Source of the DNA: Escherichia coli
Lineage (GTDB): Bacteria > Pseudomonadota > Gammaproteobacteria > Enterobacterales > Enterobacteriaceae
DNA: 1,198 bases
Reading direction: 5' to 3' (one strand)
Assembly: GCF_003334765.1 (NCBI RefSeq)
Contig: NZ_QOWT01000083.1
This document shows, in pieces, positions 4 through 1,198 of this stretch. A program made the translations under genes and the position numbers. Under the pieces are notes generated by a model, which worked only from the letters and a program-made list of their open reading frames with translations, was not told the DNA's origin and ran no database searches. The number at the start of each line of letters is the position of its first letter. Position 1 is the stretch's first letter.

Positions 4-19
4 GGAAGGTGCGAATAAG
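4..19. repeat. IS5 terminal inverted repeat, transposase-distal end (16 bp, GGAAGGTGCGAATAAG)
   Basis: Matches the reverse complement of 1183..1198 at 15 of 16 positions (mismatch at IR position 13, window position 16: T here versus C at the other end). Complementarity does not extend inward beyond 16 bp. Confidence 0.9.
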
Positions 20-149
20 CGGGGAAATACTTCTCGGCTGACTCAGTCATTTCATTTCTTCATGTTTGAGCCGATTTTTTCTCCCGTAAATGCCTTGAAC
101 CAGCCTATTTAGACCGTTTCTTCGCCATTTAAGGCGTTATCCCCAGTTT
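20..149. promoter_or_regulatory. Non-coding subterminal region of IS5 downstream of the transposase; AT-tract-rich, candidate for the bent-DNA/IHF-binding region reported for this end of IS5
   Basis: Seen in sequence: no long ORF; several T/A runs (e.g. 'catttcatttctt' 48..60, 'gatttttt' ~73..80, 'agttttta' ~145..152) and an 11-bp palindrome TGACTCAGTCA at 39..49. Established knowledge: the transposase-distal end of IS5 is reported to carry an IHF site and intrinsically curved DNA that can activate adjacent promoters. I could not locate a clean IHF consensus (WATCAANNNNTTR) by eye, so exact site placement is unresolved. Confidence 0.3.
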
Positions 150-1166
150 TTAGTGAGATCTCTCCCACTGACGTATCATTTGGTCCGCCCGAAACAGGTT
201 GGCCAGCGTGAATAACATCGCCAGTTGGTTATCGTTTTTCAGCAACCCCTTGTATCTGGCTTTCACGAAGCCGAACTGTCGCTTGATGATGCGAAATGGG
301 TGCTCCACCTTGGCCCGGATGCTGGCTTTCATGTATTCGATGTTGATGGCCGTTTTGTTCTTGCGTGGATGCTGTTTCAAGGTTCTTACCTTGCCGGGGC
401 GCTCGGCGATCAGCCAGTCCACATCCACCTCGGCCAGCTCCTCGCGCTGTGGCGCCCCTTGGTAGCCGGCATCGGCTGAGACAAATTGCTCCTCTCCATG
501 CAGCAGATTACCCAGCTGATTGAGGTCATGCTCGTTGGCCGCGGTGGTGACTAGGCTGTGGGTCAGGCCACTCTTGGCATCGACACCAATGTGGGCCTTC
601 ATGCCAAAGTGCCACTGATTGCCTTTCTTGGTCTGATGCATCTCCGGATCGCGTTGCTGCTCTTTGTTCTTGGTCGAGCTGGGTGCCTCAATGATGGTGG
701 CATCGACCAAGGTGCCTTGAGTCATCATGACGCCTGCTTCGGCCAGCCAGCGATTGATGGTCTTGAACAATTGGCGGGCCAGTTGATGCTGCTCCAGCAG
801 GTGGCGGAAATTCATGATGGTGGTGCGGTCCGGCAAGGCGCTATCCAGGGATAACCGGGCAAACAGACGCATGGAGGCGATTTCGTACAGAGCATCTTCC
901 ATCGCGCCATCGCTCAGGTTGTACCAATGCTGCATGCAGTGAATGCGTAGCATGGTTTCCAGCGGATAAGGTCGCCGGCCATTACCAGCCTTGGGGTAAA
1001 ACGGCTCGATGACTTCCACCATGTTTTGCCATGGCAGAATCTGCTCCATGCGGGACAAGAAAATCTCTTTTCTGGTCTGACGGCGCTTACTGCTGAATTC
1101 ACTGTCGGCGAAGGTAAGTTGATGACTCATGATGAACCCTGTTCCATGGCTCCAGATGACAAACAT
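150..1166 (-). CDS. insH: IS5 transposase InsH (Ins5A), DDE-type; 338 codons from ATG at 1166..1164 to TAA at 152..150; alternative start at ATG 1130..1128 would give 326 aa ([12 protein letters not shown]...)
   Basis: Seen in sequence: uninterrupted 1017-nt ORF on the minus strand, verified codon by codon at both ends. Established knowledge: the translation is recognisably IS5 InsH, with IS4/IS5-type catalytic motifs: D155 in 'LVDATII' (codon 702..704), D232 in 'SADAGYQG' (codon 471..473), E288 in '[12 protein letters not shown]' (codon 303..305, R-x3-E-x6-K). Which ATG is used cannot be decided from sequence; neither has a strong Shine-Dalgarno. Confidence 0.95.
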
Positions 1167-1182
1167 GATCTCATATCAGGGA

Positions 1183-1198
1183 CTTGTTCGCACCTTCC
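1183..1198. repeat. IS5 terminal inverted repeat, transposase-proximal end (16 bp; + strand CTTGTTCGCACCTTCC)
   Basis: Reverse complement GGAAGGTGCGAACAAG pairs with 4..19 at 15 of 16 positions. The element terminus coincides with the last base of the window. Confidence 0.9.

Follow-up and report, generated by a model that had tools for sequence, protein, structure and literature searches.

A structurally complete IS5 copy from Escherichia coli: its allele, its transposase and the question of transposition

A stretch of 1198 bases of E. coli DNA, referred to here as the window, raises the question of whether a copy of an insertion sequence that appears whole in its parts is also a copy that can move. 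The original prediction for this DNA was of an intact and probably transposition-competent IS5. The parts of the element were compared with those of reference, K-12 and wild IS5 copies, and the few bases at which the window departs from the reference were each placed on the published maps of the element.

Identity of the element and its natural allele

The P1 mod749::IS5 copy served as the reference, since its record annotates 100% identity to J01735 (the original IS5 of lambda KH100), and K-12 IS5A was used as a second reference sequence. A complete IS5 element of 1195 bp was located at positions 4–1198, with the transposase on the minus strand, and it displayed 99.58% identity to the reference. 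The count of differences that had been proposed as a check on the prediction gave five substitutions and no indels, both against the J01735-identical P1 copy and against K-12 IS5A, with 1190 of the 1195 bases being the same. The J01735 element, the P1 mod749::IS5 copy and nine K-12 copies (IS5A among them) represent one and the same sequence, and this reference IS5 shares with the window its length of 1195 bp, both inverted repeats, the gene layout, the promoter hexamers and all eight A-tracts.

Two terminal inverted repeats bound the element. The right one (IRR), on the 3′ side of the transposase gene, occupies positions 4–19 and reads GGAAGGTGCGAATAAG, and the left one (IRL), on the 5′ side of the gene, occupies positions 1183–1198, where the reverse complement reads GGAAGGTGCGAACAAG. 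Both are present, as had been predicted, and are the same as in the reference; 15 of 16 positions agree between the two, and they fit the 16-bp imperfect pattern of IS5, GGAAGGTGCGAA(C/T)AAG. The window does indeed end at the element boundaries, as just three bases, TAA (positions 1–3), precede the element on the left and the right side has no flank at all. On insertion, IS5 generates a duplication of a 4-bp YTAR target, and in K-12 its copies lie between CTAA or CTAG sites. The TAA corresponds to the final three bases of such a site and fits this target as either CTAA or TTAA.

The transposase scored 365.5 bits on the NCBIfam profile NF033581, ‘IS5 family transposase’ (cut-off 140), and matched the Pfam families DDE_Tnp_1 (4e-35) and DUF772 (7e-21). 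A megablast search with the window returned 13 830 places in 2874 of the 5426 complete E. coli genomes, and on plasmids at least 5000 records were matched, from Klebsiella, Escherichia, Enterobacter and others. Taken together, the 1195-bp length with inverted repeats, the open reading frame, the score on the IS5 transposase profile and the megablast matches make the identification as IS5 secure. The claim that this is a known element and not a new system was likewise borne out by the match to the IS5 reference. The sequence of IS5 has been available since 1981, and complete E. coli genomes contain the element at over 12 000 places; being a known element in a common allele, the copy offers nothing new and is of little importance as a discovery.

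It could be argued that the window holds an ISKpn26 or ‘IS5D’-type element of the IS5 group rather than IS5 proper, especially as many near relatives are labelled ‘ISKpn26 family’ in RefSeq, as the exact 41-mer around position 552 is common to some relatives so labelled, and as copies of 90–95% identity are very common on plasmids. However, the window shows 99.58% identity to J01735, while the fetched ISKpn26-like and IS5D-like copies show 94.2% and 90.8% identity to the window, and the annotation of the identical protein reads ‘IS5-like element IS5 family transposase’. An ISKpn26 identity was thus ruled out by percent identity, and the chance that the element belongs to this neighbouring type must be considered negligible. 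These relatives, found for example on phages phi456 and RCS47, have the architecture and length of the window element and an identical InsH sequence across positions 498–854; they differ in their nucleotide identity and in that their opposite-strand 118-codon open reading frame is open.

Two side observations concern the annotation of IS5-like elements in phage records. In phage phi456 (OR339795.1), Orf78 (448–1428 of the fetched stretch) is labelled ‘putative baseplate hub protein’ and lies exactly at the transposase position of a 94% identical IS5-like element; the label is a misannotation. E. coli IS5 is also found in two short ‘phage’ records, MG065683.1 (Campylobacter phage B14, 2504 bp) with 99.6% identity and PQ520124.1 (Enterococcus phage IME_EF3, 3036 bp) with 98.7% identity. 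As the named hosts are not enterobacterial, these sequences are probably cloning-host contamination or misassigned contigs.

The five substitutions are as follows. At position 29 the window has A where the reference has T, a non-coding change common to the wild allele. At position 100 it has C where the reference has T; this change is also non-coding, lies within the core site for IHF and is private to the window copy. The T at position 310 (reference C) converts ins5A codon AGG to AAG, giving R274K, or R286K if a 338-residue protein is numbered. The T at position 552 (reference C) is silent in ins5A, where CTG becomes CTA at L193 (L205 in the longer numbering), and converts CAG to TAG in a plus-strand frame. 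Finally, the C at position 1145 (reference T) falls in the 5′ untranslated region and reads as ‘R8G’ in the 338-residue frame.

Four of these five substitutions are part of the commonest wild allele. This allele (encoding WP_000019402.1; for example NZ_CP029981.1, 379179–380376) is the same as the window at 1197 of 1198 positions, the TAA flank included, and differs solely at position 100, where it has T and the window C. Six fetched copies from different strains and replicons departed from the window at this position alone. The six sites at which the exact wild allele was found are an HTH gene, fimZ, the traJ/traM region of an F-like plasmid, a cobalamin adenosyltransferase gene, a CPBP protease gene and the inside of ISEc1, and at four of the six intact TTAA or CTAA duplications were present. 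The ‘reference’ IS5 of K-12 is not the typical natural allele. On the grounds of identity and structure, there can be little doubt that the window element is a complete IS5 (IS5 family, IS5 group; Enterobacteriaceae) in the commonest natural E. coli allele, with one private base change.

The transposase gene and its product

A single long open reading frame on the minus strand extends across positions 150–1166 with no stop and no frameshift. The prediction that the transposase frame is full length and uninterrupted stands as far as this open frame goes, but the 338 codons that it contains are a mechanical maximum. In the RefSeq annotation of identical DNA, the ins5A (insH) gene is read from an ATG at window position 1130 to its end at 150 on the minus strand, giving a protein of 326 amino acids plus the stop (WP_000019402.1). 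The segment at 1131–1166 is an in-frame upstream extension that yields the 338-residue frame, and it is occupied by promoter and 5′ untranslated sequence.

The published map of the ins5A promoter was placed on the window. By 5′ RACE, the −35 element (gtgcga) has been assigned to IS5 bases 6–11 and the −10 element (gatcat) to bases 29–34 (PMC11894529), which correspond on the minus strand to positions 1188–1193, within the IRL, and 1165–1170. In the same work the promoter region runs from −41 to +30 with IS5 base 1 as −41, so that the transcription start, an A, maps to IS5 base 42 (window position 1157; PMC11894529), and the translation start has been placed at IS5 base 69 (PMC11043490). The ATG of the 338-codon frame corresponds to IS5 bases 33–35 (window 1164–1166). 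It shares bases with the −10 hexamer and, being upstream of the native start of transcription, is absent from the native transcript. The ins5A product is 326 amino acids in length, not 338, which is a useful point for annotation. The change at position 1145, being inside the segment at 1131–1166, is accordingly a change in the 5′ untranslated region and not the protein change that ‘R8G’ would imply. The longer form may nevertheless be made on read-through transcripts from flanking promoters, which contain the upstream ATG; such transcripts are said to drive most IS5 transposition.

No consensus promoter emerged from a scan of the window, in keeping with how weak the ins5A promoter is known to be. 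One terminator-like hairpin was observed on the plus strand at positions 36–48, followed by a T-rich run, just inside the IRR and facing inward; this single hairpin compares with 1.1 expected by chance. An Rfam scan of the window gave a chance-level match only.

The 326-residue protein was aligned with 42 full-length homologs of 35–58% identity, which came from searching 1.84 billion representative proteins. Across these 43 sequences only six columns were invariant, namely D143, G176, D220, E276, K283 and K298. The prediction that the DDE catalytic residues are in place was thus confirmed, since the window protein has D143, D220 and E276, together with K283, seven residues past the glutamate. 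An AlphaFold model made from the same alignment was confident, with a mean pLDDT of 95. Its fold matches among solved structures were weak (best E-value 9e-4), and every one of them was a DDE transposase or a retroviral integrase. When the transposase was compared with solved structures by sequence, no match was obtained.

Opposite-strand frames, residue 274 and the K-12 IS5H copy

The plus strand carries an open reading frame of 118 codons at positions 498–854, called ‘IS5 12kDa protein’ in some records. Both the public 118-residue ‘IS5 12kDa protein’ and a 108-residue ‘unknown’ protein from a lambda IS5 record map to this frame. Published work gives the gene order as ins5C and then ins5B (PMC11677980), and from its downstream position in the ins5CB direction the 498–854 frame is probably ins5B. 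The candidate for ins5C is the open frame upstream of it, at positions 172–465 on the plus strand, which has ATG codons at 286 and 289 and is the same in the window and the reference. Note that the published primer tables disagree with the coordinates given in the text for ins5B and ins5C, and that the start of ins5C is not fixed by the primers.

In the window, the T at position 552 creates a TAG (552–554) that stops the 498–854 frame at codon 19, with the remainder being open from a GTG at 558 (98 amino acids). The window has this CAG to TAG amber change in common with the wild allele and K-12 IS5H; the reference, K-12 IS5A and the two relatives of 94% and 91% identity have an open frame. Of the canonical K-12 gene set, ins5A plus ins5CB, the window therefore lacks the full-length 118-codon frame, which is a trait of the K-12 reference and does not define IS5. 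The amber does bear on whether the copy can be called intact, since overexpression of ins5CB doubles transposition (Onstead et al., PMC11677980).

The coding status of the frame was approached by comparing IS5 with the relatives of 91–94% identity. Across 498–854, eight to nine of the nine to ten differences lay at third codon positions of ins5A, and these differences produced no change in InsH and seven amino-acid changes in the plus-strand frame. In addition, an antisense frame of at least 118 codons starting with ATG arose in about half of the shuffles of ins5A with synonymous codons. Neither the comparison of IS5 with its 91–94% relatives nor the codon shuffles gave comparative evidence of protein-level constraint on the 498–854 frame.

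The window transposase is identical over all 326 residues to K-12 InsH6 (insH6, b1994), the product of the IS5H copy at cobU/yoeG of strain MG1655. Onstead et al. described this copy as having ‘five mismatches, leading to an R74K mutation’ at 99.6% identity (PMC11677980). In the alignment the only protein difference falls at residue 274, and ‘R74K’ is here taken as R274K. The cobU/yoeG copy was the source of none of 60 independent IS5 insertions, and it was called non-transposing (PMC11677980, 2024). The common natural allele thus carries both a stop in the frame that was proposed as a transposition helper and the substitution, R274K, that the same work tied to an inactive copy.

Beyond the R274K transposase, IS5H shares with the window the T552 amber and the change at position 1145. 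It differs from the window in having T at position 20, G at position 570, T at position 29 and T at position 100, and it is flanked by CTAG on both sides. The change at position 20 directly adjoins the IRR, and it could on its own explain the inactivity of K-12 IS5H.

Residue 274 lies two residues before the catalytic E276. In this column of the alignment lysine is found in 25 of 42 homologs and arginine in nine of 42, making lysine the majority residue of the family.

The frequency of each allele in complete E. coli genomes was determined by megablast with 41-mers that have the substitution at their center. An allele with a mismatch there cannot give the 28-nucleotide exact word that megablast needs, and each 41-mer thus counts the matching allele only. 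The T552 allele was found at 3917 places in 1405 genomes, with a maximum of 43 copies in one genome and with 22 copies in strain CP53, and the C552 allele at 8751 places. The codon for K274 was found at 2797 places in 1315 genomes, with at most 22 per genome. In strain 99-3165, all seven IS5 copies, spread over three replicons, carried both T552 and K274. E. coli CP53 (NZ_CP033096.1) is a different case, as 22 of its copies have the T552 amber and just a single copy has the codon for K274. Linkage of the two changes is thus not universal, and it is a recombinant or lineage with R274 and T552 that expanded in this strain. These population data argue that neither R274K nor the stop in the opposite-strand frame blocks spread. 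Note that the copy counts demonstrate spread of the allele; they do not demonstrate activity of the window copy itself.

The IB region, the private C100 and transposition competence

The internal bend (IB) region covers 177 bp at positions 4–180 and has eight phased A-tracts on the transposase-sense (minus) strand (PMC2753651). Zhang and Saier reported that this region, at the 3′ end of the element, activates PglpFK via the phased A-tracts and an IHF site (PMC2753651). The bases mutated in that work were TCAA (−221 to −218) and TT (−213 to −212), in a numbering that puts the junction with IS5 at −126.5 (PMC2753651). Mapped to the minus strand of the window, these are TCAA at 98–95 and TT at 90–89, and they place the 13-bp core site at 100–88. 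This core reads ATTCAAGGCATTT in the reference and GTTCAAGGCATTT in the window. All eight A-tracts are intact in the window; the T to C change at position 100 of the plus strand, on the other hand, alters the first position of the IHF core, such that the W position of WATCAANNNNTTR is lost. A scan for IHF sites with WATCAANNNNTTR that allowed one mismatch missed the published site, since even in the reference this site departs from the consensus at two positions. From the position of the base in the core, C100 could weaken binding of IHF and so lower the activation of neighboring promoters by the window copy.

Position 100 is T in all other copies searched. Exact matching with 90-mers found C100 at none of ~ 8400 E. 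coli places and none of ~ 2400 plasmid places, and a 38-mer spanning C100 found nothing in GTDB species representatives or in JGI metagenome contigs. That a base was seen in no other copy across all four collections is what would be expected if C100 were an error of sequencing or assembly and the copy were simply the common wild allele. However, nothing in the window points to such an error, and a singleton substitution is expected among thousands of copies; an error is thus rather unlikely, though it deserves to be kept in mind.

Copy-and-paste is the main mode of IS5 movement. The element has a nearly silent promoter of its own, and its transposase is mostly cis-acting (PMC11677980, PMC11894529). 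The two 16-bp inverted repeats flank one gene, for the 326-residue transposase with its D143, D220 and E276 triad; with a nearly silent promoter and a preference for action in cis, a copy is activated once a flanking promoter reads into ins5A. The 177-bp end downstream of the transposase can, by means of its phased A-tracts and IHF site, switch on neighboring promoters such as that of glpFK. In the window, the ends, the transposase with its catalytic residues, the promoter region and the A-tracts are all intact. As all the cis and trans parts for transposition are present, the copy would be competent in principle, judging from its sequence.

The original prediction of an intact and probably transposition-competent element was therefore right about the ends, the open transposase frame and the catalytic residues. 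It was too confident about both intactness and competence: there are five substitutions, including an amber codon in the opposite-strand frame and a change in the IHF core, and the transposase is that of the K-12 copy reported as non-transposing. The accompanying view that the interesting biology lies in the absent flanks was upheld: with a near-silent promoter and a cis-acting transposase, activity is set by a flanking promoter outside the window. With TAA on the left and no bases on the right, the window on its own displays neither the target duplication nor a flanking promoter.

A more far-reaching reading, with less than even chances, is that the window represents the naturally dominant lineage with K274 and the ins5B amber, and that this lineage would be fully active. 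Full-length Ins5B would then be dispensable, and the K-12 sibling would be silent by reason of its context or of the mutation next to its IRR, not of its proteins. C100 could still weaken IHF binding in this copy and thereby reduce promoter activation.

Alternatively, the copy may be structurally complete and yet dead or strongly attenuated, as R274K, in combination with the loss of full-length Ins5B and/or the IHF change, would keep it from moving, as is reported of the cobU/yoeG sibling. The transposase is after all that of K-12 InsH6, the T552 amber is common to both copies, and the sibling accounted for none of 60 events (PMC11677980). Overexpression of ins5CB raised transposition approximately twofold, and C100 adds one more departure from the consensus to the IHF core. 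Several lines of evidence speak against this, however. Lysine is the majority residue of the family at position 274, and the plus-strand frame is without sign of coding constraint. K274 and T552 occur in multiple copies (at most 22 and 43 per genome), in one strain they accompany each other on three replicons, and the wild allele is bounded by intact 4-bp duplications at different sites. The K-12 sibling, moreover, has the changes at position 20, next to its IRR, and at position 570, and the window is without both. Finally, the eight sequence-perfect K-12 copies other than the nmpC copy also contributed little (PMC11677980), since only the nmpC copy is transcribed. A dead or attenuated copy is for these reasons improbable, and a complete element that is competent in principle is the reading retained.

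A last observation concerns the target sites of other IS5 copies. Unequal 4-bp flanks were found at the copy between fimZ and folD (TTAA/TTAG), at another of the fetched copies (TTAA/CTAA) and at K-12 IS5A (TTAT/GGAG), and at the first of these the truncated fimZ adjoins folD. The unequal flanks, together with a truncated fimZ beside folD, suggest deletion mediated by IS5 or recombination between copies.
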